From the IMG/VR virus record IMGVR_UViG_3300033121_000902: a DNA stretch of 64,000 bases; one strand, given 5' to 3'. A model generated the notes under the pieces. It made no database searches, was not told the origin of the DNA, and was given only the letters and a program-made list of their open reading frames with translations. The DNA is from an uncultured virus (IMG/VR IMGVR_UViG_3300033121_000902) (lineage: Duplodnaviria > Heunggongvirae > Uroviricota > Caudoviricetes). Position numbers and translations under genes: made by a program. Within the stretch, counting starts at the first letter, position 1, and each line of letters starts with the position of its first letter. Of the stretch, positions 36,688-64,000 are shown piece after piece.

Positions 36688-36690
36688 TTT

Positions 36691-41395: not shown

Positions 41396-41399
41396 TATA

Positions 41400-42170: not shown

Positions 42171-42171
42171 A

Positions 42172-42636
42172 ATGAAAATTATAAAAGATACGAGAGAACA
42201 ATTAGGTTGGAATTTTCCAGGTATGGAAGTTAAAACTTTGCATACCGGAGATTATACCATTGAAGGTTATGAAAATCTATTTGTTATAGAACGCAAAGGT
42301 AAATTGACAGAATTTGTTAATAACCTTTGCACTCAAAGATTCGAAGAAGAACTTAAAAGATTAGAAGAATTTAAATATTCCTTTATTATTTGCGAGTTTG
42401 AATATTCTGATATTTTTAAATGGCCTTTGTCTTCAGGCTTATCTCAAAATAAAGTAAAATACATTAAAACAAGTAAATATTTTGTATTAAAACGTGTTAA
42501 CGAAATATTAGTCAAGTATAAAACAAAGATAATTTTTGCAGGGAAGAATGGTGCTGACACGGCATCATCAATATTTAAAAGAGTGGTAGAAAATGAAAAC
42601 AATGTTGATGACAACGGAACAAAAAAGGATTCATGA
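42172..42636 (+). CDS. ERCC4/XPF-like nuclease
   Basis: DTREQ, GDY and IERK motifs. Confidence 0.85.
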   Translation: MKIIKDTREQLGWNFPGMEVKTLHTGDYTIEGYENLFVIERKGKLTEFVNNLCTQRFEEELKRLEEFKYSFIICEFEYSDIFKWPLSSGLSQNKVKYIKTSKYFVLKRVNEILVKYKTKIIFAGKNGADTASSIFKRVVENENNVDDNGTKKDS

Positions 42637-47963: not shown

Positions 47964-48297
47964 GGTTTTAATAGAGATAGACACAGAAAGTTCAGAAATG
48001 TCTGTAGAAGTTAACGGTAAAAAGATAAATAATGTTGTTTCATTATCAGCTGGATTATACAGATATCCTGAAGAAGATGGTTCAATGAAGATGAAATGTG
48101 GTGTTGATATTTGTACAGAAACAGAAGATGAAAACGATGTAAAAACACGTACATATATTTGTGCTAACAAAAAGGATTTTAAAGGCAAACCAGTAAATAT
48201 AGAAGGGTTTGTTTTAGATGAAATTAAAGCTAATGAATCTTCTAAGGAAGAGATAGTTAAGAAACAAATCGCAAATATCTTTAATAAAAGAAGCTAA
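47956..48297 (+). CDS. hypothetical head-module protein
   Basis: 113-aa ORF coupled between portal and protease. Confidence 0.55.
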   Translation: MSKVLIEIDTESSEMSVEVNGKKINNVVSLSAGLYRYPEEDGSMKMKCGVDICTETEDENDVKTRTYICANKKDFKGKPVNIEGFVLDEIKANESSKEEIVKKQIANIFNKRS

Positions 48298-48299
48298 AA

Positions 48300-49715
48300 A
48301 TGAGACAAATTCCTATATATAAAGCTGAAAGAGAAGCTGGTTTAGCAGATAAAATTCTGACTGCTAATTCTATAGCTTATCTTACAAAAATAGAAATTGA
48401 TAAAACACCAAACAAGAATAAGATTCTTACTTGTGCCGCTATCAAAAATCATAATTGGAATGATAATCAAATTGATTTGCATTATCTTAAAGATATTTTA
48501 GTTTCTACTGGTATGAATGGTAATGATGAAATCTTTTTAAAAGAAGAGATTTGGGCAGCGAAGTCAACTCCAGAAGATAAACCTTTTAATCTTGGACATA
48601 ATTGCAAAGATATTATTGGTCACATCACATCTCAATATTTAATTGATAATAATGGTAATCTATTAGACGAGAATCTATCTATAGACGAATTACCAGATTA
48701 TCACGTTGTAAGCACATCTGTAATATATAAATATTGGGCAGATAAAGAAAGAATGGAGCAAATAAATAAAATTATAGCCGAGATTGAGACGGAAAAGAAA
48801 TGGTTCGTTTCAATGGAAGCTTTATTTGCTAATTATGATTACGGTGTTTTTAATGAAAAAGGGGAAATGGGAATTATTCCTCGAAATGAAACTACAGCCT
48901 TCTTAACAAAGCATTTAAGAGCTTATGGTGGAGAAGGCAAATACGAAAACTATAGACTAGGAAGAGTTATAAGAAATATAACCTTTTCCGGTAAAGGTCT
49001 TGTTGAATGTCCAGCTAATCCGAACAGTATCATTTTTAATGACGTTACTCCATTCAAAATACAAGCCTCTGAAAAAATAGAAGGGGTTGTAGCTTCTTTG
49101 GGGTATTCTAATAGTGAAGAAACAAAAGATAAGGAGAATTCAATGTCAGTAGAACTTGAAAATCTAAAGAAAACAAATACAGAACTCGAAAATTCTTTAA
49201 AAGAAGTACAGACAGCTAAGGCTAATCTTGAAAAACAAGTTAAAGAAATGGAAGTTAAATTAACAGAAGGTACTGAAAAAGAAAAAGTATTAACTGCTAA
49301 ATTGACTGACACTGAAGCACAGCTTAAAGCTTCAAAAGATGAGTTTAAAGCTTCTACAGATAAGCTTAAGACAGTAGAAACTGAACTTAATACTATCAAA
49401 GCAGAAAAAACTAAGAATGAAAGAATTTCTGCACTTAAAGGTATTGGAGTTGAAGAAGCTAAAGTTACTGAATTATATGAAATTTTATCTGAACTTTCAG
49501 ATGCTAAATTCAATGATTATGTTACAAAAGCAAAAGTTGCTCCTAAAGTAGAAGAAAAACCTAAAGTTGATGTTAAAGTTTTGGAAAATGTTGAAGCTGG
49601 TAAAGATGTTGGTTCTGGTAAAGTAGATGCCGAAGGCAGCACACTCCAAGCCACTCAAGCTAAGATTGCGGAATTTTATAAAGCAAGTAAAAACAAAGAA
49701 ACTGCAAAGAATTAA
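48300..49715 (+). CDS. prohead protease with C-terminal scaffold
   Basis: N.ND.F, KPFN.GH, VSME, FSGKGLV..PANP motifs, then a long K/E-rich coiled coil. Confidence 0.75.
   Translation: MRQIPIYKAEREAGLADKILTANSIAYLTKIEIDKTPNKNKILTCAAIKNHNWNDNQIDLHYLKDILVSTGMNGNDEIFLKEEIWAAKSTPEDKPFNLGHNCKDIIGHITSQYLIDNNGNLLDENLSIDELPDYHVVSTSVIYKYWADKERMEQINKIIAEIETEKKWFVSMEALFANYDYGVFNEKGEMGIIPRNETTAFLTKHLRAYGGEGKYENYRLGRVIRNITFSGKGLVECPANPNSIIFNDVTPFKIQASEKIEGVVASLGYSNSEETKDKENSMSVELENLKKTNTELENSLKEVQTAKANLEKQVKEMEVKLTEGTEKEKVLTAKLTDTEAQLKASKDEFKASTDKLKTVETELNTIKAEKTKNERISALKGIGVEEAKVTELYEILSELSDAKFNDYVTKAKVAPKVEEKPKVDVKVLENVEAGKDVGSGKVDAEGSTLQATQAKIAEFYKASKNKETAKN
49143..49715 (+). CDS. nested in-frame scaffolding protein
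   Basis: Internal AAGGAG-N6-ATG in frame at the start of the coiled-coil half. Confidence 0.6.
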   Translation: MSVELENLKKTNTELENSLKEVQTAKANLEKQVKEMEVKLTEGTEKEKVLTAKLTDTEAQLKASKDEFKASTDKLKTVETELNTIKAEKTKNERISALKGIGVEEAKVTELYEILSELSDAKFNDYVTKAKVAPKVEEKPKVDVKVLENVEAGKDVGSGKVDAEGSTLQATQAKIAEFYKASKNKETAKN

Positions 49716-49732
49716 TTAATAGGAGATAAAAA

Positions 49733-50194
49733 ATGCTTAAGGGCGACCGTCATTTATTTTACGACGATATTCGTTATTTCTGCAATGATGTAACAGAACG
49801 AGGAGTTATTCTTGTTCACTCTGGTAGCGGTGCAAGCGGTGTTTCTCTTGAAGATACATTGAATATTGCATATTTACCTGGAACAGGTAGCGTATCTGGT
49901 TTGAAACCAGTAGGTCTATTACTCAACGATTTCGTTAACGTAGACTTATCACGATATAAATTGAACGAACACAAAGATGAAATGCAAATTGGTCAAAAAG
50001 CACATTTGCTGAAAAAGGGTTGGGTACATACTGATAAACTAAAATCAGGTGATACTCCAAGTGCTGGTGTTGCAGCTTATCTAGCTCCTAGTGGAGAAAT
50101 ATCTACTACTTCGACTAATGCTGCTAGAGTTGGTACATTTAAGGGTAGAAAAGATTCAGATGGTTTCGTTTTACTCGAAGTAGATATAGCATAA
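49733..50194 (+). CDS. capsid decoration/cement protein
   Basis: Between scaffold and MCP, strong RBS, beta-rich. Confidence 0.6.
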   Translation: MLKGDRHLFYDDIRYFCNDVTERGVILVHSGSGASGVSLEDTLNIAYLPGTGSVSGLKPVGLLLNDFVNVDLSRYKLNEHKDEMQIGQKAHLLKKGWVHTDKLKSGDTPSAGVAAYLAPSGEISTTSTNAARVGTFKGRKDSDGFVLLEVDIA

Positions 50195-50221
50195 TAATTT
50201 AAAGATAATAGGAGTTTAAAT

Positions 50222-51244
50222 ATGCGTAAGCGAAAAGTTGATTATACAGTAACTCCTGAAATGAGAGAGTTACTTTTAGCTAGCGGCGATAATGATGCTA
50301 ATAAAGCAATTTTAGCACAACGCCAATTAGCAATGGCATTGATGCTGCCTCTAAGACAGGGTATATTAGATGGCGATATCGTTGGTCCTATGGGTATTTT
50401 TACCTCTTTGGACTTTAGTAACAACAATAAAGTAGAGTTTCCTCTAGACTTTATTTCTCCAGGTTCAGAAGATGAATATAGTGCATTCACTATACCTAAC
50501 TATGGACGTATCCCAGAGAAACATGTTGAAGGTGATTATGTCACTGTACCAACCTACGATGTAGGTGCTGCAATTGACTTCCATCTTAAATATGCAAGAG
50601 ATGCACGTTGGGATATTCTTTCAAGAGCTATGCAGGTCATGGAAGCTATGTTCCGTAGAAAGATGAATTTGGACGCATGGCGTTGTATTTTAGCAACTGG
50701 CGTTGACAGAAACTTACTTGTGAACGATTCAACTGCACCAGCAGGTTTCTTCACTAAGAGATTAGTAAGTTTGATGAAAACACAGATGCGTAGAAGCGGT
50801 GGTGGAAACTTAGCTAGCTTGAACCCAATCGAGCTAACAGATATCTTTACAAGTCCAGAAAACATGGAAGATATTAGAACTTGGGACTTAACACAGATTG
50901 ACGACGTTACTCGTAGACAGGTTTTCCTTGCTAGCGGTAACGGTGGATTGTCTAACATCTTTGGTGTTGACCTTCACGAATTAACTGAGTTAGGTGTTAA
51001 TCAGACATTCCAAACCTACTTTACTAACCTTGGTGGTTCTCTAGCTGCTAGTGACACTGAATTAGTAATTGGTCTTGACTTGACTGATAATGCAGGTTCC
51101 TCATTCGTAATGCCTATTAAGGCTCCATTAGAAATCTTTGAAGACCCAACTCTTCATCGTCAACGCAGACAAGGTTACTATGGTTGGCAAGAACACGGAT
51201 TTGCTATCCTAGACAACAGAAAAGTCATGTTCGGTAGCAACTAA
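50222..51244 (+). CDS. major capsid protein (HK97 fold)
   Basis: 340 aa, strong RBS, position in head module, followed by terminator. Confidence 0.85.
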   Translation: MRKRKVDYTVTPEMRELLLASGDNDANKAILAQRQLAMALMLPLRQGILDGDIVGPMGIFTSLDFSNNNKVEFPLDFISPGSEDEYSAFTIPNYGRIPEKHVEGDYVTVPTYDVGAAIDFHLKYARDARWDILSRAMQVMEAMFRRKMNLDAWRCILATGVDRNLLVNDSTAPAGFFTKRLVSLMKTQMRRSGGGNLASLNPIELTDIFTSPENMEDIRTWDLTQIDDVTRRQVFLASGNGGLSNIFGVDLHELTELGVNQTFQTYFTNLGGSLAASDTELVIGLDLTDNAGSSFVMPIKAPLEIFEDPTLHRQRRQGYYGWQEHGFAILDNRKVMFGSN

Positions 51245-51263
51245 TTAAAAACTGGTCATTTAT

Positions 51264-51298
51264 TAAAAGAAGCTTGCTTTTTGCAAGCTTTTTTTATT
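51264..51298 (+). terminator. intrinsic terminator after MCP
   Basis: AAGCTTGC-TTTTT-GCAAGCTT then T-run. Confidence 0.85.
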
Positions 51299-51337
51299 GG
51301 TGTATAAATAAGTTATACTTGTAATAAGGGTTTTTAT

Positions 51338-51853
51338 ATGTCATGGCAAACTGAAGCTACTGGATTGCTAAGAGTATACATAAATGATATGGATACTCCT
51401 TATCGTTATTCTGACGCGAGATTAGAACAAGTTCTAGTTTCGTCAGCTAAAGTAGTTTTATTTGATACTGGTGGTAAAGGTTTTGCTAATGAGTTTCAAG
51501 CAGATATCACTTCTGGAACCATAACACCAGACCCAACTGATGACGCGAGTAAAGATGATAATTTCATTAACTTGATAGTTCTCAAAGCTGGTTGTTTTAT
51601 AGATAACTGTGAAGCAAGAACAGCTGCTAGAAAAGCTGGTATGGTTGTTAAAGAATTTTCAAGTAGTTTTGATAATCGTGGACTTGCTGATGCTAGATTG
51701 AAAATATTGGATAAGGGTTGGTGTAAAACTTATGATGATTCATTATTTGATTTCTTAGCTGGCAGTTCATTCGTATGTACAGCTATACTTAGTCCTTTCA
51801 GGACATATTATACAGCTGGTTATTTTAATAGAGATACATGTAACGGGAGATAA
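51338..51853 (+). CDS. head-tail adaptor (neck) protein
   Basis: LRVYIND....YSD..L pattern, position after MCP. Confidence 0.6.
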   Translation: MSWQTEATGLLRVYINDMDTPYRYSDARLEQVLVSSAKVVLFDTGGKGFANEFQADITSGTITPDPTDDASKDDNFINLIVLKAGCFIDNCEARTAARKAGMVVKEFSSSFDNRGLADARLKILDKGWCKTYDDSLFDFLAGSSFVCTAILSPFRTYYTAGYFNRDTCNGR

Positions 51854-51855
51854 AA

Positions 51856-52380
51856 ATGCCTAGCGATATAGGAAAGTGCATTTCTGCGAATAATTATCAT
51901 GAAGGATGTGCTGTAACAATACTTCCTGTTGGAGTAGATTTAGCAAACAAAATCCTTGATGTTACAAGAAATAAAGCAAACAAAGACTGGTCTGCATTTG
52001 CTAATGTTGTTGCAAATAAATGGAAAACTATTGGTTATTATTACAATGATTATCCAGATAGTCAATTGACAAGCGATGTTGACGCTCCAAATGCTAATAC
52101 TAACGCTGTTATAAATTACAGTGCTGATGCATACGGTAAACATGTTTTAGCTGGCCTTGCTTGGAGCTATAATGCTTCACCTACAAGCGGTAATTTAAAG
52201 GTTGAAGACGGTTCAGGAAATACAATTTTTTCTGTCGATATAACATCTGCTGGACCTGGACAGTTTACATTCCCAGATAATTTGCAAGGAACAGCAAATA
52301 CGGCAATGATTATTACTTTGAACGCTGCCGGTTCTGGAGTCAGTGGCAAACTCACAACGCTCGGACACAAGGTTGAATAA
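51856..52380 (+). CDS. virion-associated hypothetical protein
   Basis: 174 aa, beta-rich, in neck module. Confidence 0.5.
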   Translation: MPSDIGKCISANNYHEGCAVTILPVGVDLANKILDVTRNKANKDWSAFANVVANKWKTIGYYYNDYPDSQLTSDVDAPNANTNAVINYSADAYGKHVLAGLAWSYNASPTSGNLKVEDGSGNTIFSVDITSAGPGQFTFPDNLQGTANTAMIITLNAAGSGVSGKLTTLGHKVE

Positions 52381-52547
52381 TGAAAAATAATTCTTCGCCC
52401 ACCCTTCCTGCTAACACAGGTTTAAGCGGAATGTCTGTTACTGGTGGCGTTGTTGCACCAGTCGGAGAAACTTTTTTCTTGATGAAAAACGGTACAGATT
52501 ATTTGTTAAAAAACAACTCTAATGATAAATTGTTAATCAGAGGTTAA
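52380..52547 (+). CDS. 55-aa hypothetical protein
   Basis: ATG overlaps the upstream TAA; fills the gap before 52550. Confidence 0.5.
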   Translation: MKNNSSPTLPANTGLSGMSVTGGVVAPVGETFFLMKNGTDYLLKNNSNDKLLIRG

Positions 52548-52549
52548 TA

Positions 52550-53074
52550 ATGGCAGATTTACTCGACTCTGATGATAGAAGTTCAATATTAGAAACTTTT
52601 GATGACATTTTTGATACTTACAAGAAAGAATGTCGTGTTTATTATCCTTCTAGGATGGAAACATGCTCTAATTGTATATATGACAGTATTGGGGAAAAAT
52701 CCGGTAATAGATATAAAACTGGAGGTCCAGCACCTTTTAATGTTGGTTATTGTCCAATGTGTAAAGGTAGTGGAAAAAGAGAAACTGAGAACTATGATAC
52801 AGTTTATATGACTATTGATTGGAACCCAGGAAATTACTCGCTAAAGAAGTTTTTAAGAATAACTGATATAGCTAAGATTCCAGACAATGTAATCATGACA
52901 AGATTTAAAGGTAGTGATTATACTAAAATAAGACCATGCGAACATATGATAGTTGTAGGAGCTATGGAACCTTATTTTCATTTTAAGTATAAAATGTTTT
53001 CTGAACCTATTGACGCTTTTCAAGTAAATACAGCAGGGAGTTATTTCTTAACAGTATGGCAGAGATTAGGTTAA
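52550..53074 (+). CDS. neck / head-closure protein with Zn-finger insert
   Basis: CSNC...CPMCKG.G; position in neck module. Confidence 0.55.
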   Translation: MADLLDSDDRSSILETFDDIFDTYKKECRVYYPSRMETCSNCIYDSIGEKSGNRYKTGGPAPFNVGYCPMCKGSGKRETENYDTVYMTIDWNPGNYSLKKFLRITDIAKIPDNVIMTRFKGSDYTKIRPCEHMIVVGAMEPYFHFKYKMFSEPIDAFQVNTAGSYFLTVWQRLG

Positions 53075-53691
53075 TAGTAGTAGATTCTACTTCTGATTTA
53101 GCTAATAAAATTGGGCAATCCATTGCTTCTGATATTAATGCTTCTATTTCTACTATTTTATCAACTAATGTAATAGAACAAGGTTTAGAGAAAATAATAA
53201 CGAATGCTATAGAGGTTTCTCCAGAATATGAATCTTTACTCAACGGTCAATTACAAAAGGAATTTGGTTTAAAAGAAGCTAAGACAAGTTTGGACTCTAT
53301 TATAAATGGAATCATTAGAGAAATGGATATTGAGTTTAGACCATTTACTTTTATAGGAAATTCATTTATAGGTTCGTTAACTATTAGCATATCCAAATCA
53401 GATTTTTCAGATGTGCTAAATGTTGATGGAGCTTCATACATATCTAAAAACGGTATAATTGTACCTTGGTTAAATTGGTTATTATTATATGGAGATAATA
53501 TTGTAATTGGTGATTATAAAATACAATATAAAGATAATGATGAAGTATTTATGGTAAAAAGCAATGAAGGTTGGAGAGTTCCTCCAGAATTTTCTGGTAC
53601 TGAATCTGATAACTGGATAACTAGAAGTTTAAGCGTAGTTCCAGAAGAGTTAGAAAAATTTATATATTCAGAAATACTTAGAAGGTTATAA
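53056..53691 (+). CDS. neck / tail-completion protein
   Basis: PWLNWLL..G and W.VPPEFSGT..DNWITR motifs; position. Confidence 0.5.
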   Translation: MAEIRLIVVDSTSDLANKIGQSIASDINASISTILSTNVIEQGLEKIITNAIEVSPEYESLLNGQLQKEFGLKEAKTSLDSIINGIIREMDIEFRPFTFIGNSFIGSLTISISKSDFSDVLNVDGASYISKNGIIVPWLNWLLLYGDNIVIGDYKIQYKDNDEVFMVKSNEGWRVPPEFSGTESDNWITRSLSVVPEELEKFIYSEILRRL

Positions 53692-53693
53692 TA

Positions 53694-54647
53694 ATGTCTT
53701 ACACGCAGTTAAAAGGCGTTACACAAATAGGAGAAGCTACATTATCAGAGCAGTTATATGCTAATATAAGTACGTTTTTTAATTGGGGTTTGCTAGGAGT
53801 TGGTAGTTTTTTTAATATTACTCGCCCTTCTTCTGGTACATATGGCGGTGATTATTCAACATTAAGTTTAAGACATGATAGAAATTATACTTTAGGACGA
53901 GTATGGGAATCTGCTATACATGATTGGGTATGGGAAAGTGGAATAGAGTATAATACTCAACCAATAAGTATATCTGGAGTATATGTAAATAATGTGTTTT
54001 ATCCGTCTTCTGGTACTGGCACTTATGCTCATATTATAAATTATCCTTTAGGACAAGTTATATTTAATAATCCTATAGCTACCGGAAGCGTAGTTTCATT
54101 AGAATATAGTCATAGATATTTTCATTTCTACACAGCTGATACTCCAGGAGCTAAAGAAATAATGTTCAACTCATTTAGAGTTGATGATTCTCACTTTAGT
54201 CAACCCGAATCTGGTGTATGGAATATAATGTCTCAAAATAGAATAGAATTACCGGCAGTTATTTTAGAAGTTGTGCCAAAACAAAAAATGGTTGGGTTGC
54301 AGCTTGGTGGTGGTCAATGGGTAAGTAGGGATATCTTGTTTCATGTGTTAGCAGAGTCAGTTAGTGATAGAGATAAAATATTTGATATTATAACTTATCA
54401 GAAAGATAAAACTATCTTATCATTTGATAAGAATGCACTTATAACTGATAATAAGTTTCCATTAGATTCTGATGGTTCGCTAGTTTCTGGTGCTATTAAT
54501 TATCCAGAGATGGTAAATCCGACAGGGCAATACTTTTGGAAAAAGCTACTTTTTGAAAATTTCGTGTCTCAGGATGTTCCCTCTACGCCTCCACTATTTA
54601 GAGCAACCATAAGAGGCACTATTAAGACAGATTTAACAGAAATTTAA
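53694..54647 (+). CDS. tail terminator-like protein
   Basis: LPAVILE...GLQLGG...RD motif immediately before the tail tube gene. Confidence 0.55.
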   Translation: MSYTQLKGVTQIGEATLSEQLYANISTFFNWGLLGVGSFFNITRPSSGTYGGDYSTLSLRHDRNYTLGRVWESAIHDWVWESGIEYNTQPISISGVYVNNVFYPSSGTGTYAHIINYPLGQVIFNNPIATGSVVSLEYSHRYFHFYTADTPGAKEIMFNSFRVDDSHFSQPESGVWNIMSQNRIELPAVILEVVPKQKMVGLQLGGGQWVSRDILFHVLAESVSDRDKIFDIITYQKDKTILSFDKNALITDNKFPLDSDGSLVSGAINYPEMVNPTGQYFWKKLLFENFVSQDVPSTPPLFRATIRGTIKTDLTEI

Positions 54648-54660
54648 TAAGAGGTATAAA

Positions 54661-55692
54661 ATGGCTAATAAAAGAGTTTATTATGCAATTCAGCAAGTTA
54701 GAATAGCTCCTGACGGTACAGCTTCAGGTTCATATACAGACGCATATACTATTCATGGATTGCAGCAAGTTGGTATCAATACAAAATTTAATCTAGAACA
54801 GGTTTTCGAGATAGGTCAGCTTGCTATTTATGAAAATATTGAAAACTTGCCTGATGTTGAAATAACCTTAGAAAAAGTTCTAGATGGTAACAAGTTAATG
54901 TACCATTTAGCTACTCCAACAGCTACAAGTGCTACTTTAGCTGGACGTTCAACAATTAAATCACAGGTTCTATTAAGTATCTTCTCAGATACTAAAGATT
55001 CTGCTAGTGGTGCAGCTATAACAGAAACAGAATGTTCTGGTATGTTCCCATCTCAGTTGACTTATACTTTCCCTGTACAAGGAAACGCAACTGAATCTAT
55101 TACTATGGTTGGTAATAACAAAACATGGAGAACTCCATCAGTAGCTAGCGGTAGCTTCCCTGGCAACAATGATACTCCTCCTGGTTCAGGTGGTGTTCAA
55201 AGACGAGAAGATATTCTTTTCGGTTCTGGAGCTTCATACTGCGTATTGCCTCCTTCAGTAGAAGGTATTACAGATATTGGTGGTGGTAGCGGTTATAACA
55301 TTCTGGTTTCAGGTGCTTATGGTGCTGCTATTCAGTCAATCAAAGTAAGTGCAAGCTTAGGAAGAGATAATCTTGAGGAATTAGGTCACAAAGCTCCTTA
55401 TTTCCGATATGTTAACTTCCCTGTTCAGGTTAAAACTGATATAGAAGCTTATTGCAAAAACGGAGACCAAGTAACAGCTTTAGAAGATGCTGAAAACCTT
55501 ACTGACGAAACTATTATCATCAAAATGCGTGAAGGTTTAGTTATCAACTGTGGTAACAAAAATAAACTAGATAGCGTATCATTTGGTGGTGGTAATGCTG
55601 GTGGTCGTGGTGGTAACGCTACATGTACATATAGCTATACTACTTTTAATGATATGACTGTAACACATCCTCAAGACCCTGCTGGTCTATAA
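54661..55692 (+). CDS. major tail tube protein
   Basis: MANKRVYYA start, strong RBS, followed by terminator. Confidence 0.7.
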   Translation: MANKRVYYAIQQVRIAPDGTASGSYTDAYTIHGLQQVGINTKFNLEQVFEIGQLAIYENIENLPDVEITLEKVLDGNKLMYHLATPTATSATLAGRSTIKSQVLLSIFSDTKDSASGAAITETECSGMFPSQLTYTFPVQGNATESITMVGNNKTWRTPSVASGSFPGNNDTPPGSGGVQRREDILFGSGASYCVLPPSVEGITDIGGGSGYNILVSGAYGAAIQSIKVSASLGRDNLEELGHKAPYFRYVNFPVQVKTDIEAYCKNGDQVTALEDAENLTDETIIIKMREGLVINCGNKNKLDSVSFGGGNAGGRGGNATCTYSYTTFNDMTVTHPQDPAGL

Positions 55693-55721
55693 TATTTGTT
55701 TTTTAATCTGTTAGGTTTTAT

Positions 55722-55756
55722 AATCCTGTAGAGAAATTTTCTTTACAGGATTTTTT
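55722..55756 (+). terminator. intrinsic terminator after tail tube gene
   Basis: AATCCTGTAGAG...CTTTACAGGATT then T-run. Confidence 0.8.
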
Positions 55757-56836
55757 ATGTTTACAAACAATGAAGCTATATTAAAAGTTTCGAGAGTTTG
55801 TTCTGGACTTCTTTTCGTGAGCGTTAAAGACGTTGGAAGAAATAAGTTTGAACTCATACTCAGAAATCCATCTCTGTATTATATAAATTTATCAAACGAA
55901 TTATTTTTTGATTTCATCCAAGAAGGCTTGGAGTACGGCTTATATTCTGAATCGGAATATGAAGATTTTCTATTAGATAATGAATTATGGTTACCAGAAG
56001 GCGAAGAAAAAATAAAGTCGCTTAGAAAAGATATGGACGAACTTAAAGTAAAAATGTTTCAAACAGGATTTAATTCAAGAGAGTTAAACGAATGTAGAAA
56101 AATTTTGAAATATGTTAAAGATGATATCAATAAATTATTTAGCCAAAAACATAGATACGATTATTTGTCAGCAAAAGGGTTCGCCGACTCAGAGAAAATG
56201 AAGTTTTTAATAGGCAACAGCTTATATGATATAAACAAAAGAAAACTTATTAAAAACGGATATTGGGAATTTCCTACATTTGTATTAGAACAAGTAGCAG
56301 TTGTATATAAGAATTCAAGATTAACAGAAGAACAAATTAGATGGCTTGTTAGGAACGAACCGTGGAGAACAATTTGGACATCTAAAAAAGGCAACCTATC
56401 TTTGTTTACCGTTTCGTCAAGCGAATTAAGCGACGAGCAAAAAGCTTTTATAGCTTGGTCTTCTATTTACGATGCTATTACAGAAAATCCAGATAGCCCA
56501 CCACAAGATGTTATAGACGACGATGATTTAATTGATGGTTGGATGATTTTGCAAAGAAAAAATAGAGATAAAGATTTATTGCAAAAAAGAGCAGAAAATC
56601 TTATCACGAATGATAAAATTAAAAATTCTAGCGATATATTTTTGCCTGTTTCTACAAAAGAGGACTTCGAAAAAGTTTCTTCATTGAACGATGCTCAAGG
56701 AAATCTAATTAAGAAACAACGATTTTCATATGTAGAGAAACATGGAGTAGTTAAAGAATCAGAAATGCCTGATGTGAAGAAAGATATTAAGATTGAAAGA
56801 AATAGAATGTACGCGGAAAAAGTTAAAGGAGGATAG
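55757..56836 (+). CDS. tail-module protein, possible assembly chaperone
   Basis: 359 aa between tail tube and tape measure genes. Confidence 0.5.
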   Translation: MFTNNEAILKVSRVCSGLLFVSVKDVGRNKFELILRNPSLYYINLSNELFFDFIQEGLEYGLYSESEYEDFLLDNELWLPEGEEKIKSLRKDMDELKVKMFQTGFNSRELNECRKILKYVKDDINKLFSQKHRYDYLSAKGFADSEKMKFLIGNSLYDINKRKLIKNGYWEFPTFVLEQVAVVYKNSRLTEEQIRWLVRNEPWRTIWTSKKGNLSLFTVSSSELSDEQKAFIAWSSIYDAITENPDSPPQDVIDDDDLIDGWMILQRKNRDKDLLQKRAENLITNDKIKNSSDIFLPVSTKEDFEKVSSLNDAQGNLIKKQRFSYVEKHGVVKESEMPDVKKDIKIERNRMYAEKVKGG

Positions 56837-56838
56837 AA

Positions 56839-57240
56839 ATGTCGGACAATAATGAAATGTGGCTTAAGATGAGGGAGGTAACGGAAAAAAGAAATTCATC
56901 TGAGCCTTCCTTGCTCAAACTTCAAAGGGAACAAGAGTCAAAGAAAAGATTATTAGCAATAGCAGAAAAAAAACTAAAAACTTCTTTCATTCATCCTTTA
57001 AGTTGTTTTGAACAAATTTTTGGACATCTTTGGGGTTTTGGAAAGAAAGAATCTGAGTTGACAGAAGAACAGAAAAAAAATAGATTTTTGTGGAATTCTT
57101 TAAGGTCTAGCGTGTTAAATAATGGTAACGGACAGATTAGAGCAATCCACAATGAGTTAAATCAATATACGGTTAACTGGAACATGTATAAATATACACT
57201 GAAGACTATGGAGAACAATGATGGCAACAATAAAGAATAA
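56839..57240 (+). CDS. hypothetical tail-module protein
   Basis: 133 aa, RBS GGAGG. Confidence 0.55.
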   Translation: MSDNNEMWLKMREVTEKRNSSEPSLLKLQREQESKKRLLAIAEKKLKTSFIHPLSCFEQIFGHLWGFGKKESELTEEQKKNRFLWNSLRSSVLNNGNGQIRAIHNELNQYTVNWNMYKYTLKTMENNDGNNKE

Positions 57241-58036
57241 ATTAGTTTTTAACACAAAAGACAAAGATGATAACGATTTAGAATTATGTGTTAAAAAGCC
57301 TAATACTCAACAGAGCAAGGAACTTCAAAAAGTATATAACAAAAACTTTAAAGAAGCGTTAGACTCTGGTGCTATTTTGAGAGTTAAAGTAGAACAAGTA
57401 GCAAGAGAACAAAATATATGGAATGATGCTATACAAAAAGAGTTTGAAAAGTTGCAGACTCAAATATCAGATTTAGAACTAAAACTTGCTAAAGGTGGAA
57501 ACGCTGGTTTAACTCTGAAAAAAGCTAAAGAAGTTGCTGTAGATTTGGCAGGAAAGCGTGGTCAGTTAAGAATGCTTCTAGCTCCGAGAAATGAAATTGA
57601 TGTTAATACAGCAGAAGCACAAGCTGAGAATGCTAGATTCAATTATATGGTTGCTTTATGTACTTATTTTAATTCTGGAAAGAATGAAGGTAAGAACTAT
57701 TTTACAGATTACGAAGATTTAGTAGAGAGATTATCCGAAAAAGCTTCTATGGATGCAGCTAAATATCTTGGATTCCTGATTTACAATCTTGAACCAGATT
57801 ATGAAATGAGCCTACCAGAAAATAAATTTTTAGTTGATTACGGTTTTGCTAACAAAGATGGTAGACTGATTAATAAAGATGGCAAGTTTGTTAACTTAGA
57901 TGGTCACTTGGTTGATGAAAAAGGAAGATTGATAAACGAGAAAAACGAACTTGTTGATAAAGACGGTAATCTTCTTGACGATAAGGGTAACTATAAGGTA
58001 GACTTCAAACCATTTTTACCTGAAGACGACGAATAA
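57218..58036 (+). CDS. probable tail assembly chaperone with C-terminal 7-aa repeats
   Basis: Coiled coil, then GRLINKD-GKFVNLD-GHLVDEK-GRLINEK-NELVDKD-GNLLDDK; directly upstream of the TMP gene. Confidence 0.55.
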   Translation: MMATIKNKLVFNTKDKDDNDLELCVKKPNTQQSKELQKVYNKNFKEALDSGAILRVKVEQVAREQNIWNDAIQKEFEKLQTQISDLELKLAKGGNAGLTLKKAKEVAVDLAGKRGQLRMLLAPRNEIDVNTAEAQAENARFNYMVALCTYFNSGKNEGKNYFTDYEDLVERLSEKASMDAAKYLGFLIYNLEPDYEMSLPENKFLVDYGFANKDGRLINKDGKFVNLDGHLVDEKGRLINEKNELVDKDGNLLDDKGNYKVDFKPFLPEDDE

Positions 58037-58056: not shown

Positions 58057-58103
58057 GGATAGAGTTTATTGCAATAATTTTGTAATAGCTCTATCCTTTT
58101 TTT
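58057..58103 (+). terminator. intrinsic terminator just upstream of the tape measure gene
   Basis: GGATAGAG...CTCTATCC stem with T7 tail. Confidence 0.7.
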
Positions 58104-58119
58104 GTTATATGAGGATTAC

Positions 58120-61100
58120 ATGGCTGGTTTTAACATAGTCGCACAAATACAGCTTCAAGCTCCAACAAATCTAAGTAGAATTGCTTCGCAAATCCGCAGC
58201 AGTTTACAAGGAATTAATGCGAATATTAACCTAAACTTGTCTTCAGGGGCACTTAATTCCATAAATAACCTGACAAGTTCTATCAATAATCTTAATGCTA
58301 GTATAAGAGGTTTGAATACTAGTACAGCTACACTCAATACAACTTTCGCAAATTTTGCATCAAACGCAAACAGATTTAATTCTGCTGTCAGTAATACAAC
58401 AAGTAATCTTCAAGCACAAGCTGTTGCTGCTGTTGCTAATGCTAAAGCTATAAAAAGTGCTTCCGAAGCTGCTGAAGAATTCGGTAAAGCTGCTGGTTTA
58501 GCTGGTAGAAGATTCTTAGGTTTTACATTAATTGCTGGTAGCGTTGCTGGTACAATTGTTGCTCTTAAAAATGCTGTCACTGAAGCTGTTGCTTTCGAGA
58601 GAGAATTCATTAAAATCTCTCAAATAAACAATATTACAGCTGGAGAACTTGCTGCATTAAATAATGAAATCACAAGATTAGCCACATCTTTCGGTGTTTC
58701 TAATAAAGAATTAGTTAATACCGCTGTTACTTTAAAACAAGCTGGTTTAAGTGCTAAAGAAATCACTTCAGCTATGGAAGTTTTAGCAAAAACAACTCTT
58801 GCTCCTAGCTTTGAAAACATAAGAGATACTACTGAAGGCGTAATTGCTATTATGTCTCAGTTTAAAATAGAAGCTAAAGATGTAGAAATAGCTTTAGGTT
58901 CTATTAACTCTGTTGCTAACTCTTTCGCTGTAGAATCAAAAGACTTAATTTCTGCTGTTCGCCGTTCTGGTGGAGCTTTCAAAGCTGTTGGTGGTGATTT
59001 AAATGAGTTTATTTCACTATTCACATCAGTTAGAGCTACAACTAGAGAAAGTGCAGAAAGTATCGCTACTGGTTTAAGAACTATTTTCACAAGATTACAG
59101 CGTTCCGACACTGTAAGTTCATTGGAACAATTAGGAATTAACCTTCGTTACACAAGAGAAGAAGCAGAAGCTTTAGGACAAACTAATTTAGAGAAACAAT
59201 TCGTTGGTGCTTATGAAGCGGTTCGTAGATTAAGTCAAGGTTTAGCAGGTTTACGCTCAACAGACCCAAGATATTCATCTGTTATAGAGGAACTTGGTGG
59301 CTATCGACAAATTTCTAAAGCTATTCCTTTAATTCAAGAGTTTACTTTAGCTCAAAGAGCATTAGCTGTTGCTCAAGCTGGCGGAACATCTATCACTCAA
59401 GCTGCTGATAAAGCTCAAGAGACATTCTTAGTAAAGCTTTCAAAAGTTAAAGAAGAGTTCTTAGCTTTCGGTAGAGTAGTAGTAAGTAGCCAAGGATTTC
59501 AGTCATTTCTTGATACTGCCCTTAAACTAGGAAATGCTTTCGTAAGAATAGCAGATGCTCTCTCTCCTTTGATTCCTTTATTAACAACATTAACCGCAAT
59601 TAAGCTTACTACAAATTTTGCTTCATTCTTCACAGGTTTAAGCGAAGGTTTCTCTGGACGCGGACCTAAAAGATTCGCTACAGGTGGTGTTGTTCCTGGA
59701 CATGGTAACTCAGATACAGTTCCAGCATTACTAACTCCAGGTGAATTCGTAATCAATAAAACAGCTGCTCAATCAATAGGTTATAGCAATCTAAATAATA
59801 TCAGTAAGTTTGCAGCTGGTGGGAATGTTAATTTTAAAGTTGGAAAGAAAAATCTTTCTTCTGATGATGTTTACTTCTTATACAAATTAGCGGCAGAGAA
59901 ACAAAACGCTTCAAAATATTTATCTCCAGAAATTAATGGAGTTCCAAACAAGACTGGAATAAACAATCAAGCGTATTTAAAAAAACTTTTTGGAGATGGC
60001 GATTACTCAACTCCAGCTAAAGTATTTTCAGCATTTGGTTTTCCAGGTAAAGGAAAAAACGTACAAAGCCTCAGACAGTTGAGAGACGACTTGGAAAGAA
60101 GTTCTGGATTTTTACAAGAGCGAAACACCCTTCTTGCTAAAGGTTCATCTTTAGTTCGCGGAAAAACTTTGTATGCTCCTTTTGGTGGAGACGGAATTGG
60201 TTATGTAACAATGCCTCTTGGCGGTGGAGAAAAAGGTAAGGTCGGTAGAGACACATTAAATGCAGGTATAAGAGTTAGAGAATTAAGTATTGATAATTTA
60301 GGTAAAAAGGTTAATCAGAATGCTAAAGGTTTACTAGAAAAAGCTGGTATAGAAAAGATTGTTGGAGCGGTTAATGTTTATGTAATGGGTAGTCAGCCTA
60401 CAGCAGAATTTTATAACGAAATATTAGGAGAAGTTAGTTCTAACATTCAAGGTATTTACACTAAGAAATTTGGAGCTTCACGTACTTCTGCTTTTAATAA
60501 AAACCAGTTATCAACAATTAGTGGTTATTTATTTGAAAAATACATAGAAGGTATAACAGGTAAACCTACAGCTGGAGAAACATCAGATTTCGAATATACT
60601 AGAAGTAACTTAAATTCTGTACTTGGTCCTAAGTTTGACCAATTTGTATTTCCTTCACCAATCAAATCTAACTATATTGATTTAAAATCAAGTTATAGTC
60701 GTGGTAATGATTCTGATATTATTAAGAAATATATCAATTCAACATCAAGAACTGGTAAGCTATTAGAAGCTTTAGGACAAGCACCAGCTAAGTTTGCTAC
60801 AGGTGGAATAGTTCCAGGTAGCGGACACGGCGATACTGTGCCAGCAATGTTAACTCCTGGTGAATTTGTTATTAAAAAAGCTTCAGCACAAGCTATTGGT
60901 TACGATAATTTAGCTAATATTAATAGATATGCTAGTGGTGGTACTGTACAGATTAGACCTCCCGGAGGAGAAATTGGAGTTTTAACAACTGAAAGCAATG
61001 CTGTAAAAAATTCTTATGATATAGTAATGCCTAAATCTGGTTTTTCTCAACAAAATATATCAAAATTTAACTTTAAGACTGGAAATTATAAAGTACCAAA

Positions 61101-64000
61101 TGATAATGTTGCTGTAAGAGCTAGAAATTATATTCCGTTTAACCAACCTCAAGCTGTTGAGTTTAGAAGTAAACTAGAACGTAGAATTATAGGAGATTTA
61201 TCTAAATTATCTAAAGAATTTTTTCCTCAACAATCTATTAATGAGAGTTATTCATCAGAAATTTTAGATAAAACATTAGGAACTCAAGGTTTAGGAAGAA
61301 TGTTTGAAGCTGTTTTGCAATTTGCTTTCGCAAAGCAAGCTCCTAGCAAAACTGGTGATATTTTTGATTTCGTTCCCCCTCATAGTGAAGGTTTATCTAG
61401 ATTTATTGGTAAAAATATTTATGCTGACGCTAAATACGCAGATACTTATTTCAGCAGAGCTTCTATATTGGGCAAAGCTGTCAATGCTATTAATGCTGGA
61501 CTTCCAGGCTTTGATTTTACATACCCTCTTTTAACACAAAAAGAAAAAACTAATGTTAGTAAGGTAGCATCATCTAGTTTAACCTTATCAAGAGGGGATG
61601 AGCAAAGTTCATTAGCTTCTGACGATTTTAATAAAAAAATAATTCCAACTCCAAAGAAATATGCTGGTGGTGGAGTAGCTTCATTATTAACTCCTGGAGA
61701 GTTCGTAGTGAATAAAGAAACTGCTAGTAGAGTTGGACCTACAGCTTTAAACTACATGAATAATAATGGTAGATTGCCACAGAAATTTGCTACTGGTGGA
61801 TTTGTAGTAAATAAAGCGTCTGTTTTTTCAGCATTTAAAAAAATACAAGATATTTCTGGAATAAATTTTAGAGATATAGGGGCTTTAAATGATATTAAAT
61901 TAAGTAGCAGTCCAGCAGTTTCAAATGCTCTTGGAGGGCAATTATCTTCTGAGTATAGAGGTATTTTTTATCCAGTCACAAAAAGAGTTGTTATAAATCC
62001 TAATACTGTTAATAGCGAAGAATCATTATTAGAGACATTAAGTCATGAATTAGGACACTCTATTGATGCTCAAAGAGCTTCTGTTTTAGGTACTAAATCT
62101 TATTACGCATCAAATATTAATGGTAATACTTATCGACGATACGCTGATAGATATCAAGAAAGATTGGAGAAACAATATCCTCAGTTATACGCTAAAATAA
62201 TTGCTCAACCTGAAAATTTAAGAAAATATACTTTCCTTCCAGAGGAAAATTTTGCTAATTTATTTGCTAGTTATATAGATGTAAATACCAGAGACAGAAC
62301 TGCTCCTATATTTGAAGATTTTGATAAAGATATTTTGTCAAAATTAAGAACTAAAAAATTTGCAGATGGCGGTTATGTAGAAAATGCCGTAAAATTACTT
62401 AATTCTAGACTTCGTATTAATAACAGCAGAAAAATTTTCAATGAAGTTAAAGTTCAAGATTTTTATCCTGATGATAGTCCATTAGATGGGGTTGCTTACG
62501 CTAATAGAAATATATATCTAAATAATAGGTTAAATCCAACTCAATTACATGAAACATTATTGCATGAAATAGGACATACAGCAGATTCATATTTTGCTGC
62601 AAATACTTATGGTATACCAGTTAATGAACTTAAACCTTCATATGCTACATCAATTAAAGGCAACTTATTTTCCGGGATAGTTAACAGAGAATATATAAAA
62701 CAAAGAAATTCTTTATTAGGTAATACTAATGAAAAGGCTAAAGAAACTTTAGGTAATCTATCTCAAAGTAGATATGAATATATGAAGTATCTTTTTAGAA
62801 AAGAAGAACTTTTCGCTGAAGCTTTCAAGAATTTTGCTTTAGGAGATGATACACATAAGAAAGCGTTTTTAAAAGCTTTTAAAGGTTTTAATAAAGGTGG
62901 TAAGTCTGAAGATACAGTTCCAGCTTTGCTAACTCCTGGCGAATTTGTTATTAACAAAGATTCAGCTAATCGTTTAGGTTCAAATAGTTTAAACTATATG
63001 AACGCTACTGGTAAAATTCCTGGCTATAATCGCGGTGGAGAAGTAAGAAGATATACTAGTGCCGGAAGAGTTAATATTGGTAGTAGTAGAACTGCTGATG
63101 ACTTTATTACTTCTGGGTACAATAGAAACTTATCAGTTTTGGATAATAGTGTTGCGTCTGCTATCAAATTGGACTCATTAACTAATTCTTTAATAGAAAT
63201 AACAAAAAAACATGTACTTTCTCTTAATGCTGGATTAACTGAACAACAAGCTTATAATGTTGGCGTCGAAAGAGTTAATGCTTTATTAAAGACTAATTTT
63301 CAATTAATAGCAAATAATAAAGGTGAGCTAGTTGGTTATACAAACAGAGGATTTGCAAATCAGCCAGTTTCTAAATATTCTAACGATTTAAGACAATCTC
63401 AACAGACAAATTTAAACCAACTTTTAGAAAAATTATCTAACGAAGCAGCTTTGAAACAAAATAAACCATCTTTTAGAGAAAGATTATCTGGTATTGCAGG
63501 TTTATTAGCTAGCACTGGTGTAACTTATGCAGCTTCAGGTTTAGAGAGTTTAGCTGGTACTGCTGAACAAGCTGCTTTATCTGGTTCTGGTACTGCTTAT
63601 AGTTTAGCTAAAGCTGGAAGTTCTGCTTTATCATCTGGAGCAACTATTGGTTTTGCTGGAGGTAACGTTTTTGGTCCTATTGGTGCTGCAATTGGTGGAA
63701 CTATTGGAGCTTTATCTGGATTTATTACGGCGTTAACCGATGCTAATAGAGAAATATTAAATGCTAAAATTGGTTTAAATATCAAAAAGTTGGGAGAACA
63801 ATTTGAAATATTAAATAAAGTTTCTTTAAGAGATATTTCTGTATCTAATATTAGCGTAGCATCAAGCGTAATTGGAGATTTATTAAAAGATTCTAGAAAA
63901 AGAAGTATAAGCGAAGCTACGACTTTAGGAGTTACAAATATACCTTCATTTATAAATGCCTCACAAAAAAATGATAGAGAAGTATTCCAAAATAGTTTGC
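58120..64000 (+). CDS. tape measure protein (TP901-like core) with embedded nuclease-like and metallopeptidase cargo domains; 3' end outside window
   Basis: ATG at 58120 after GAGG; frame open to the window end (>1950 aa); LKQAG, INSVANSFAVES.DL and TTRESAESIATGLRTIFTRL TMP-core motifs; glycine zipper near 63650. Confidence 0.9.
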   Translation, partial: MAGFNIVAQIQLQAPTNLSRIASQIRSSLQGINANINLNLSSGALNSINNLTSSINNLNASIRGLNTSTATLNTTFANFASNANRFNSAVSNTTSNLQAQAVAAVANAKAIKSASEAAEEFGKAAGLAGRRFLGFTLIAGSVAGTIVALKNAVTEAVAFEREFIKISQINNITAGELAALNNEITRLATSFGVSNKELVNTAVTLKQAGLSAKEITSAMEVLAKTTLAPSFENIRDTTEGVIAIMSQFKIEAKDVEIALGSINSVANSFAVESKDLISAVRRSGGAFKAVGGDLNEFISLFTSVRATTRESAESIATGLRTIFTRLQRSDTVSSLEQLGINLRYTREEAEALGQTNLEKQFVGAYEAVRRLSQGLAGLRSTDPRYSSVIEELGGYRQISKAIPLIQEFTLAQRALAVAQAGGTSITQAADKAQETFLVKLSKVKEEFLAFGRVVVSSQGFQSFLDTALKLGNAFVRIADALSPLIPLLTTLTAIKLTTNFASFFTGLSEGFSGRGPKRFATGGVVPGHGNSDTVPALLTPGEFVINKTAAQSIGYSNLNNISKFAAGGNVNFKVGKKNLSSDDVYFLYKLAAEKQNASKYLSPEINGVPNKTGINNQAYLKKLFGDGDYSTPAKVFSAFGFPGKGKNVQSLRQLRDDLERSSGFLQERNTLLAKGSSLVRGKTLYAPFGGDGIGYVTMPLGGGEKGKVGRDTLNAGIRVRELSIDNLGKKVNQNAKGLLEKAGIEKIVGAVNVYVMGSQPTAEFYNEILGEVSSNIQGIYTKKFGASRTSAFNKNQLSTISGYLFEKYIEGITGKPTAGETSDFEYTRSNLNSVLGPKFDQFVFPSPIKSNYIDLKSSYSRGNDSDIIKKYINSTSRTGKLLEALGQAPAKFATGGIVPGSGHGDTVPAMLTPGEFVIKKASAQAIGYDNLANINRYASGGTVQIRPPGGEIGVLTTESNAVKNSYDIVMPKSGFSQQNISKFNFKTGNYKVPNDNVAVRARNYIPFNQPQAVEFRSKLERRIIGDLSKLSKEFFPQQSINESYSSEILDKTLGTQGLGRMFEAVLQFAFAKQAPSKTGDIFDFVPPHSEGLSRFIGKNIYADAKYADTYFSRASILGKAVNAINAGLPGFDFTYPLLTQKEKTNVSKVASSSLTLSRGDEQSSLASDDFNKKIIPTPKKYAGGGVASLLTPGEFVVNKETASRVGPTALNYMNNNGRLPQKFATGGFVVNKASVFSAFKKIQDISGINFRDIGALNDIKLSSSPAVSNALGGQLSSEYRGIFYPVTKRVVINPNTVNSEESLLETLSHELGHSIDAQRASVLGTKSYYASNINGNTYRRYADRYQERLEKQYPQLYAKIIAQPENLRKYTFLPEENFANLFASYIDVNTRDRTAPIFEDFDKDILSKLRTKKFADGGYVENAVKLLNSRLRINNSRKIFNEVKVQDFYPDDSPLDGVAYANRNIYLNNRLNPTQLHETLLHEIGHTADSYFAANTYGIPVNELKPSYATSIKGNLFSGIVNREYIKQRNSLLGNTNEKAKETLGNLSQSRYEYMKYLFRKEELFAEAFKNFALGDDTHKKAFLKAFKGFNKGGKSEDTVPALLTPGEFVINKDSANRLGSNSLNYMNATGKIPGYNRGGEVRRYTSAGRVNIGSSRTADDFITSGYNRNLSVLDNSVASAIKLDSLTNSLIEITKKHVLSLNAGLTEQQAYNVGVERVNALLKTNFQLIANNKGELVGYTNRGFANQPVSKYSNDLRQSQQTNLNQLLEKLSNEAALKQNKPSFRERLSGIAGLLASTGVTYAASGLESLAGTAEQAALSGSGTAYSLAKAGSSALSSGATIGFAGGNVFGPIGAAIGGTIGALSGFITALTDANREILNAKIGLNIKKLGEQFEILNKVSLRDISVSNISVASSVIGDLLKDSRKRSISEATTLGVTNIPSFINASQKNDREVFQNSL

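Follow-up and report, generated by a model that had tools for sequence, protein, structure and literature searches.

A repeated lambda-type junction module fences inserts in the giant tape measure protein of an uncultured tailed virus

The subject of this work is the gene for the tape measure protein (TMP) at the end of a 64,000-nucleotide stretch of DNA (the whole stretch is hereafter the window) from an uncultured virus of the class Caudoviricetes (IMG/VR record IMGVR_UViG_3300033121_000902). In its product a lambda-type junction module is repeated along the chain and fences independent inserts, and the same module is the exchange point for inserts between related phages. This general building rule is what we add. 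Earlier work had described single domains embedded in TMPs, and for one such enzyme, P23-45 gp96, activity in the host has been demonstrated; also in print are TMP cleavage, the fusion of a polymerase to a TMP, polyvalent proteins, and injection-system effectors related to TMPs whose domains are exchangeable. A search of the open-access literature and bioRxiv returned no account of such a module or of TMP inserts fenced by it. We regard the division of the TMP into ruler segments and cassettes, with exchange at the modules, as nearly certain, and we favor as fairly probable the whole reading, in which the inserts of this cassette TMP travel in the tail, leave with the TMP, and are joined by junctions that are probably cut. 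The finding suggests that the proteins which tails bring into cells are varied and exchangeable, and the module, present in about 13,000 protein clusters, is a simple way to locate the borders of virion-carried proteins in metagenomes.

The tape measure protein and its repeated module

A single open reading frame (ORF) of 1,966 residues runs from 58102 to 63999 on the + strand and continues past the end of the window. The database protein P0242 (3,569 aa) is 100% identical to ORF residues 7–1966, and because this match begins at residue 7 the gene start is the ATG at 58120, with GAGGA just 5′ of it; the window thus covers the first 55% of the gene. Residues of window features are numbered below in the ORF translated from 58102. 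Family models identify the product, at the level of sequence, as a TP901-type phage tail TMP: PF10145 matches aa 188–400 (E 2.1e-26; score 93.5 bits, cut-off 33.2) and TIGR01760 matches aa 149–453 (99.8 bits, cut-off 28.8), in agreement with the original prediction, which had been made from the letters of the window. In full length, P0242 reads as an N-terminal core of 516 aa, module M1, an insert of 319 aa, M2, an insert of 231, M3, two inserts (358), M4, a long ruler of 1,155, M5, an insert of 529, M6, and a C-terminal tail of 118, giving six modules in total that fence five insert slots.

A scripted search of the translated ORF found TPGEFV four times (nt 59734, 60853, 61690, and 62932) and [FY]xxGG nine times (nt 59674, 59809, 60793, 60928, 61660, 61786, 62359, 62887, and 63025), the latter preceded by K, R, or G in all nine cases. 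DTVP..LTPGEFV is found three times, the third TPGEFV copy being without DTVP. Every motif coordinate and count in the original prediction proved exact. Its nine [FY]xxGG linkers are correct as positions but are not nine separate elements, since eight of them are the two ends of four modules of about 55 residues (M1 to M4), and the ninth (FADGG, nt 62359) is a lone half-module. The module pattern is [KRG][FY]AxGGxV, 0–10 residues, DTVPAxLTPGEFVxNKxxAxxIGxxxLxxxN, 0–8 residues, and again [KRG][FY]AxGGxV. The four insert intervals that had been proposed correspond to the gaps between modules, at about aa 577–895, 950–1183, 1236–1419, and 1425–1593.

The chance expectation was taken from 2,000 shuffles of the protein. 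Nine [FY]xxGG were observed against a shuffle mean of 1.2 and a maximum of 6; for [KRG][FY]xxGG the nine observed compare with a mean of 0.26 and a maximum of 3, and for GEFV the four observed compare with a mean of 0.03 and a maximum of 1. That the repeats reflect chance or low complexity, or an assembly or frame artefact, is an explanation for which the glycine richness of TMPs and nothing else speaks; it is refuted by the shuffles, by the identical 3,569-residue public protein, and by thousands of homologous modules, and we give it a negligible probability.

An AlphaFold2 (AF2) model spanning M1, insert 1, and M2 (model 1; alignment of 31 rows, mean predicted local distance difference test [pLDDT] 77.6, predicted template modeling score 0.62) shows M1 as a β-hairpin (VPALL/EFV) followed by two short helices at pLDDT 75–83, whereas FAAGG at the C-terminal end stays under 50. 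Flexible [KRG][FY]AxGGxV peptides flank this small unit on either side. The module is covered by none of the models in Pfam or NCBIfam. A resemblance to LysM was considered and rejected for now: Pfam at E ≤ 10 gave just PMBR, on one of the four copies, at E 0.11. The four copies in the window share 66–75% DNA identity and contain no long exact repeats. With DNA identity at this level, conservation lies in the peptide, and recent gene conversion has left no sign within the gene.

The module is shown to be under protein-level selection. Among 482 modules from 121 TMPs, the core residues are D in 98%, P in 95%, A in 96%, L in 98%, G in 99%, E in 99%, V in 98%, and N in 96%; the GE[FY]V core is present in 472 of the 482 and the flanking GG is kept in 92–97%. 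The aromatic-xxGG form is found on the N side in 267 modules, on the C side in 393, and on both sides in 235, and the consensus common to both ends is [GKR][FY]AxGGxV. The 121 proteins are the query and its best 120 matches, picked by similarity in the module region, and the copy counts are therefore not unbiased frequencies: all 121 carry 2–7 modules, with four in 69. The usual layout is a core of 450–525 aa, a module, an insert of 140–900, a module, and a long segment of about 1,000–1,300, followed in the C-terminal half by a module, an insert of 100–1,000, a module, and a tail of about 90–180.

A profile built from the four window copies was compared with the sequences of the PDB and matched lambda gpH (8iyk_H) at residues 732–784 of 853 (E 0.0025), a weak match but an end-to-end one that spans profile positions 3–56. 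In PHROG, several families of TMPs have a match to the module close to the C-terminal end, which indicates that a single C-terminal copy is the common state, as the original prediction had held for TMPs in general. In full-length TMPs the last module lies about 90–180 residues from the C-terminus; in P0242 it is M6, outside the window, which ends 118 residues from it, and the five further copies in this protein are the departure from the family pattern.

The module is widespread. A word-indexed search with residues 520–1660 returned 833 proteins of 1,081–3,441 aa. With the four-copy profile, HMMER was run without an index on 1.84 billion cluster representatives and matched 12,976 at E ≤ 1e-3, 3,843 at 1e-10, and 834 at 1e-30, and the best 150 of the 12,976 have 3–10 matched stretches each in proteins of 1,619–7,872 aa. 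Within IMG/VR, at least 663 of the 664 pattern matches among those listed were confirmed. Of cultured phages, 153 records carry the module, including, by organism name, Gordonia (99), Synechococcus (14), Mycobacterium (7), Burkholderia (6), and Pelagibacter (3). The TMP of Gordonia phage Kita (gene 17, L077:2114-8551; 2,145 aa) has strong copies at residues 949–1006, 1628–1682, and 1970–2025 and an additional weak copy at 1235–1297. Two very long TMP-like proteins, P0248 (7,794 aa) and P0251 (7,872 aa), contain 11 and 10 modules, respectively, by a profile of the 482 modules (10 and 9 stretches by the four-copy profile) and several long segments of about 1,000–1,150 residues, and in these the whole core-plus-cassette unit seems to be repeated.

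No cultured phage gave a near DNA match to the window, and tblastn against cultured phages aligned the TMP core alone, at about 25% identity. The whole ORF and the C-terminal 184 residues of P0242 found no close relatives in viral_contigs, and neither viral_contigs nor metagenome_contigs contains an exact 48-nt string taken from the window end. The matches from BFVD were all other TMPs, at TM-scores of about 0.2. A search for shorter proteins gave 3,039 matches, mostly from contigs of 1–7 kb; such proteins are therefore gene fragments and uninformative on split genes.

Exchange and identity of the inserts

That cargo varies at the module borders had been proposed in the original prediction, with comparison of relatives as the check, and such a comparison agrees with it. 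Of 119 N-terminal colinear alignments to the window TMP, 91 stop at aa 567–593 (M1 ends at 576), 10 at 904–952 (M2 ends at 949), and two at 1235–1240 (M3 ends at 1235). In individual relatives, colinearity stops at residue 942 (P0004), 949 (P0007), 961 (P0243 and P0246), 1235 (P0005), and 1240 (P0041).

We then compared pairs drawn from 225 long TMPs (233 proteins reach 1,500 aa or more, and 8 of them, without two modules or a core, were left out); these pairs are not independent of one another. N-terminal cores are at least 80% identical in 64 pairs, and in 30 of the 64 at least 60% of the length of the first inserts shows no similarity; for 21 of these 30, BLAST gave no match whatever. Similarity is absent until M2 in pairs that are 92–97% identical up to M1. 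The pair P0017/P0020, for example, is 96.5% identical over residues 1–511 (M1 ends at 511), has no similarity over 512–834, and resumes at 76.7% identity from 835 (M2 starts at 834) through the C-terminus; P0098/P0120 has the same pattern. P0009 differs from P0349 by one additional insert-plus-module unit. The C-proximal inserts are the most varied, and 74 of 224 insert segments are singletons, mostly C-proximal. On these protein alignments the module is shown to be the exact joint for gain, loss, and replacement of inserts between related phages. The proposed role as a recombination anchor is thus supported between related phages, where breaks fall at module edges; within the window gene, the DNA identity of its copies speaks against it.

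Within the window, inserts 1b (aa 701–895) and 2 (aa 950–1183) are paralogous to each other, as are inserts 3 and 4, and with these two pairs the array looks like duplications of insert-plus-joint units. The first pair belongs to a family that we term domain X, found by jackhmmer in 58 of the 121 TMPs in the core-nearest slot. AF2 confidence is high over most of insert 1 (pLDDT 82–96) and over the core of insert 2 (80–93; model 2 residues 60–190), which supports the view of the inserts as separate folded units. The conserved pattern, GxxFE … FDF … (D/E)xK … K, recalls PD-(D/E)xK nucleases. It appears in insert 1b as GYLFE (60523–60537), DFEY (60586–60597), and IDLK (60676–60687), and in insert 2 as GRMFE (61294–61308), FDFV (61363–61374), and ADAK (61423–61434). 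In the alignment of domain X designated A3 (38 rows), K162 is invariant and E120, D140, and K176 are kept in at least 90% of rows; in alignment A2, E291 is invariant and K341 is kept in at least 90%.

We considered assigning domain X as a nuclease. VIA-align of model 1 listed four type II restriction enzymes, PspGI (Z 3.6, 3.9 Å root mean square deviation [rmsd], 108 aligned residues), Cfr10I (Z 3.4, rmsd 4.7, 107 aligned), Bse634I (Z 3.3, rmsd 5.8, 115 aligned), and SgrAI (Z 2.9, rmsd 6.1, 119 aligned), but these sit among unrelated rows of equal Z. Model 2 returned helical-hairpin rows only, the best at Z 5.3, and with both models VIA-align gave nothing above that value and Foldseek nothing at E ≤ 0.001. 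Searches of Pfam, NCBIfam, and PHROG found no match to domain X, and the ESM Atlas had no usable match for insert 2. The nuclease assignment was not made, given the lack of a Foldseek match and VIA-align values of at most Z 5.3.

Inserts 3 and 4 are, as judged from weak family hits, zincin-like metallopeptidase (MPTase) domains of a type common in phage polyvalent proteins. Insert 3 carries HELGHSID (62044–62067) and EENFA (62242–62256), and insert 4 HEIGHTAD (62563–62586) and EELFA (62803–62817). On insert 4, Peptidase_M78 scored 22.8 bits in the window ORF (cut-off 22) and 21.2 in P0242, PHROG 87 (metallo-protease) matched at E 1.7e-10, and ATLF matched at E 8.7e-4; ATLF, and the DUF6782 and SprT-like matches of insert 3, fell below cut-off. 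The family alignment, of 17 domains from 13 TMPs, shows conservation of the HExxH motif, of an Asp three residues on, and of a Glu downstream, and jackhmmer found the family in 13 of the 121 TMPs, in core-proximal and C-proximal slots. The peptidase-like region has no sequence relative in the PDB. The description of the inserts as enzyme cargo therefore stands for inserts 3 and 4, with their HExxH, downstream Glu, and weak peptidase-family hits, but not for inserts 1 and 2, whose domain X fold was not identified. A precomputed PF03496 (ADP-ribosyltransferase exoenzyme) domain is present in the related giant TMPs P0010, P0011, P0039, and P0063, and toxin-type enzyme domains thus occur among the inserts of related TMPs.

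Proposed delivery and cutting, and comparison with known systems

We propose that the inserts would travel in the tail lumen within the TMP and leave with it at infection, so that they would reach the envelope or the cytoplasm before the DNA or together with it. Every insert would be kept an independent unit by the Gly-flanked module, where limited proteolysis would probably take place, either while the tail matures or once the TMP has been ejected; the cut would be made by the built-in peptidases or by a different protease. By analogy with known systems, we lean slightly toward delivery of the inserts as functional cargo; cutting at or beside the [FY]AxGG peptide, suggested by similar analogies, is tentative and the less probable outcome. 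A bolder extension, which we think doubtful, takes [KRG][FY]AxGGxV as a protease site common to thousands of phages, and the giant TMPs as injected polyproteins whose effectors are freed at the modules; the lumen would store a string of unfolded or compact effectors, and zincin domains would do the cutting where present. If true, each phage would come with a ready-made, exchangeable set of effectors that act ahead of all phage gene expression, and the same site would be the long-sought cleavage site of lambda gpH.

The closest comparison is lambda gpH itself. Lambda gpH matures to gpH* and gpHC, and the module-matching stretch lies in the unresolved N-terminal part of gpHC; the cleavage site and the protease are described as not yet identified (PMC12617516). 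In the tail tip, residues 818–849 alone are visible (PMC10721106). Residues 732–784 align as FATGG…GEFV…YATGGYV, end to end with the module, but gpH has one copy and no inserts, whereas the full-length window TMP has six copies and five insert slots. The 40-year-old question of where and how gpH is cut becomes testable in cultivable multi-module phages such as Gordonia phage Kita.

The lambda structure also bears on an alternative to which we assign an appreciable, though minority, probability, namely that the modules are structural or assembly elements that stay uncut, with the inserts tethered and acting, if at all, within the intact TMP. Each hairpin-helix unit would have a constant binding partner, for example an adjacent TMP chain, the lumen of the tube, the hub, or the assembly chaperone of the tail, and would reset the register of the TMP bundle after each bulky insert. 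The conservation of the eight core residues, all at 95% or above in the 482 modules, the small folded unit predicted by AF2, the place of the last module just before the terminal stretch, the location of the gpH terminal helix in the tail tip, and the activity of P23-45 gp96 as a fusion are all consistent with such a role. However, the lambda stretch homologous to the module lies in the cut-off fragment, part of which may be lost, and half-motifs without the core also mark insert borders: 60 lie outside full modules, in 38 of the 121 proteins, versus about 7 in one shuffle, and they stand immediately before peptidase-like domains in P0001, P0002/3, P0021, and P0035.

Delivery of an enzyme by a TMP has a precedent in the 5,002-residue TMP gp96 of Thermus phage P23-45, which is fused to a virion RNA polymerase that is on phage DNA 5 min post infection (PMC10770324). 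Like the window TMP, gp96 holds an enzyme in a giant TMP together with metallopeptidase and membrane regions, and it was shown in virions (PMC10770324). It differs in carrying a single N-terminal enzyme as a fusion, and the accessible part of the paper describes no repeated junction module or insert exchange. In the polyvalent proteins of phages and conjugative elements, no domain is commoner than the zincin-like MPTase, which has been predicted to set the other domains free (Iyer et al. 2017, PMC5512222). These proteins likewise string unrelated effector domains in giant polypeptides, and their HExxH..D MPTase variant is that of inserts 3 and 4; the full-length window TMP has a comparable composition, with domain X twice, an MPTase-like domain twice, and the 529-residue insert. 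In contrast, the accessible text of PMC5512222 is without tape measures or a conserved fence module, and the carriers it covers are head-packaged or conjugation-delivered.

The inserts could instead be tools of envelope penetration, the HExxH domains cutting peptidoglycan or envelope proteins, in the manner of the T5 pb2 metallopeptidase region or TM4 Mt3, and domain X binding or disturbing the wall or membrane. Most of the domains known to be embedded in TMPs are wall hydrolases (Mt3 of TM4, PMC1796659; T5 pb2C, PMC10038345), SPβ YomI is annotated as a transglycosylase, and a TMP has to cross the envelope. After M4, the window TMP has a glycine-zipper hydrophobic stretch (aa 1837–1876, nt 63610–63729) with weak Pfam matches to C19orf12 and DUF1269. 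However, HExxH..D plus Glu fits the polyvalent-protein MPTase and not the M23 or lysozyme families, no muralytic family was matched, and the ADP-ribosyltransferase exotoxin-type PF03496 domains of the four relatives act on cytoplasmic targets. We consider this explanation rather unlikely.

Processing of tail proteins at glycine-rich sites is known elsewhere. The TMP of T5, pb2, is kept metastable, and its cleavage falls after R1127, immediately ahead of AEGG (PMC10038345), in the context …FVPR|AEGGMMYPG…. We rejected this site as a module homologue (module HMM [hidden Markov model] score −3.9). TP901-1 Tal is processed at the glycine-rich NGGGNSGGGD, before its first catalytic domain (PMC11409707). 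These two proteins (for T5, pb2/pb2C) and TM4 gp17 Mt3 resemble the window TMP in having a functional domain inside a tail-lumen protein, and differ from it in having one domain each, no lambda-type module, and muralytic activities. The Sle1-type effectors of actinobacterial contractile injection systems have a TMP-related carrier and diverse, exchangeable functional domains (PMC13277306), but the particle is phage-tail-like, the functional domain is one and C-terminal, and the accessible part of that report mentions no fence module. The 11-residue "units" of PMC3271669 are a different thing from the module.

Lambda gpK has JAB/NlpC domains, and we examined the possibility that a gpK-like peptidase encoded downstream cuts after GG. 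No such match was found in 79 ORFs downstream of related TMPs at 29 loci, the scan leaving out 12 further candidates, among them every ORF of loci L058 and L076; none of the 79 matched peptidase, JAB, or NlpC families at E ≤ 1e-4, and six matched any family.

This last result is among several that weigh against the reading of the window TMP as a cut and delivered cassette protein. For this TMP and its close relatives, cleavage and delivery rest on analogy. A peptidase-like domain occurs in only 13 of the 121 TMPs, and general cutting would therefore need another protease. P23-45 gp96 works as a fusion, with no cleavage reported in the accessible text (PMC10770324), and T5 pb2 is without the module, which makes the likeness of its cut site only loose. 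The module core is far more conserved than a linker or a cut site needs, pointing to a binding or structural role. When the embedded motif Mt3 of TM4 gp17 was deleted, the tail shortened from 200 to 180 nm (PMC1796659); embedded domains thus also count as ruler. Domain X, which makes up half of the "cargo" in the window, is without an assigned fold or function. As for exchange, the low DNA identity of the module copies speaks against a recombination anchor acting inside this gene, and the closest relatives, P0002/P0003 (43% identity), are colinear with the window TMP to residue 1398, so its own inserts were inherited and not recently swapped.

Features and gene surroundings in the window

The positions of the TMP gene and its parts are collected in Table 1.

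Table 1. Parts of the tape measure protein gene in the window, with the basis of each assignment.
Feature	Residues	Position (nt)	Strand	Basis or remark
TMP gene, 5′ part	1-1960 of 3,569	58120..64000	+	Window stops inside gene
TMP core domain, PhageMin_Tail/TP901 tape measure		58663..59301	+	PF10145 and TIGR01760
Module M1, KRFATGG…DTVPALLTPGEFV…KFAAGGNV	522-576	59665..59829	+	Motif search and alignment
Insert 1a, helical subdomain, close relatives only	577-700	59830..60201	+	jackhmmer, 4 of 121; AF2 helices at model residues 66-158
Insert 1b, first domain X copy	701-894	60202..60783	+	Paralogous to insert 2; pLDDT 84-96
Module M2	895-949	60784..60948	+	Motif search and alignment
Insert 2, second domain X copy, flanks predicted disordered	950-1183	60949..61650	+	jackhmmer, AF2
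Module M3, shortened, without DTVP	1184-1235	61651..61806	+	Alignment
Insert 3, putative zincin-like metallopeptidase domain	1236-1419	61807..62358	+	Weak Pfam DUF6782, SprT-like; paralogous to insert 4
Lone half-module KFADGGYV, between peptidase-like inserts 3 and 4	1419-1426	62359..62373	+	Motif search
Insert 4, second putative zincin-like metallopeptidase domain	1425-1592	62374..62877	+	Peptidase_M78, ATLF, PHROG 87
Module M4	1593-1648	62878..63045	+	Motif search and alignment
Start of long ruler segment of about 1,155 residues		63046..64000	+	P0242 architecture

Terminase- and portal-like ORFs precede the TMP gene, which is downstream of them. The 13 consecutive ORFs that separate the portal-like gene from the TMP (47956–58036, +) gave no PHROG match at E ≤ 0.001; they presumably encode head and tail proteins, of a structural module very distant from described phages. 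The last two, 56839–57240 and 57218–58036 (+), directly upstream of the TMP and also without a PHROG match, overlap in different frames, and their position fits a frameshifted tail assembly chaperone pair.

The terminase large-subunit ORF (42593–45763, +; 1,056 aa) matches a terminase PHROG over residues 51–1007 and has separate endonuclease- and helicase-like matches inside, which suggests a fused domain or an inserted element, for instance a homing endonuclease or an intein. The region immediately upstream of the packaging genes (35264–42636, +) has ORFs with matches to a sigma-factor-like protein (35264–35884), a nucleotide-sugar epimerase (36691–37707, E 2.4e-72), an HNH endonuclease (37658–37987), and an ERCC4-type nuclease (42172–42636). 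At about 34000 the coding strand and the GC skew both flip, from minus and negative before to plus and positive after, and the flip near 34 kb marks a divergent transcription point.

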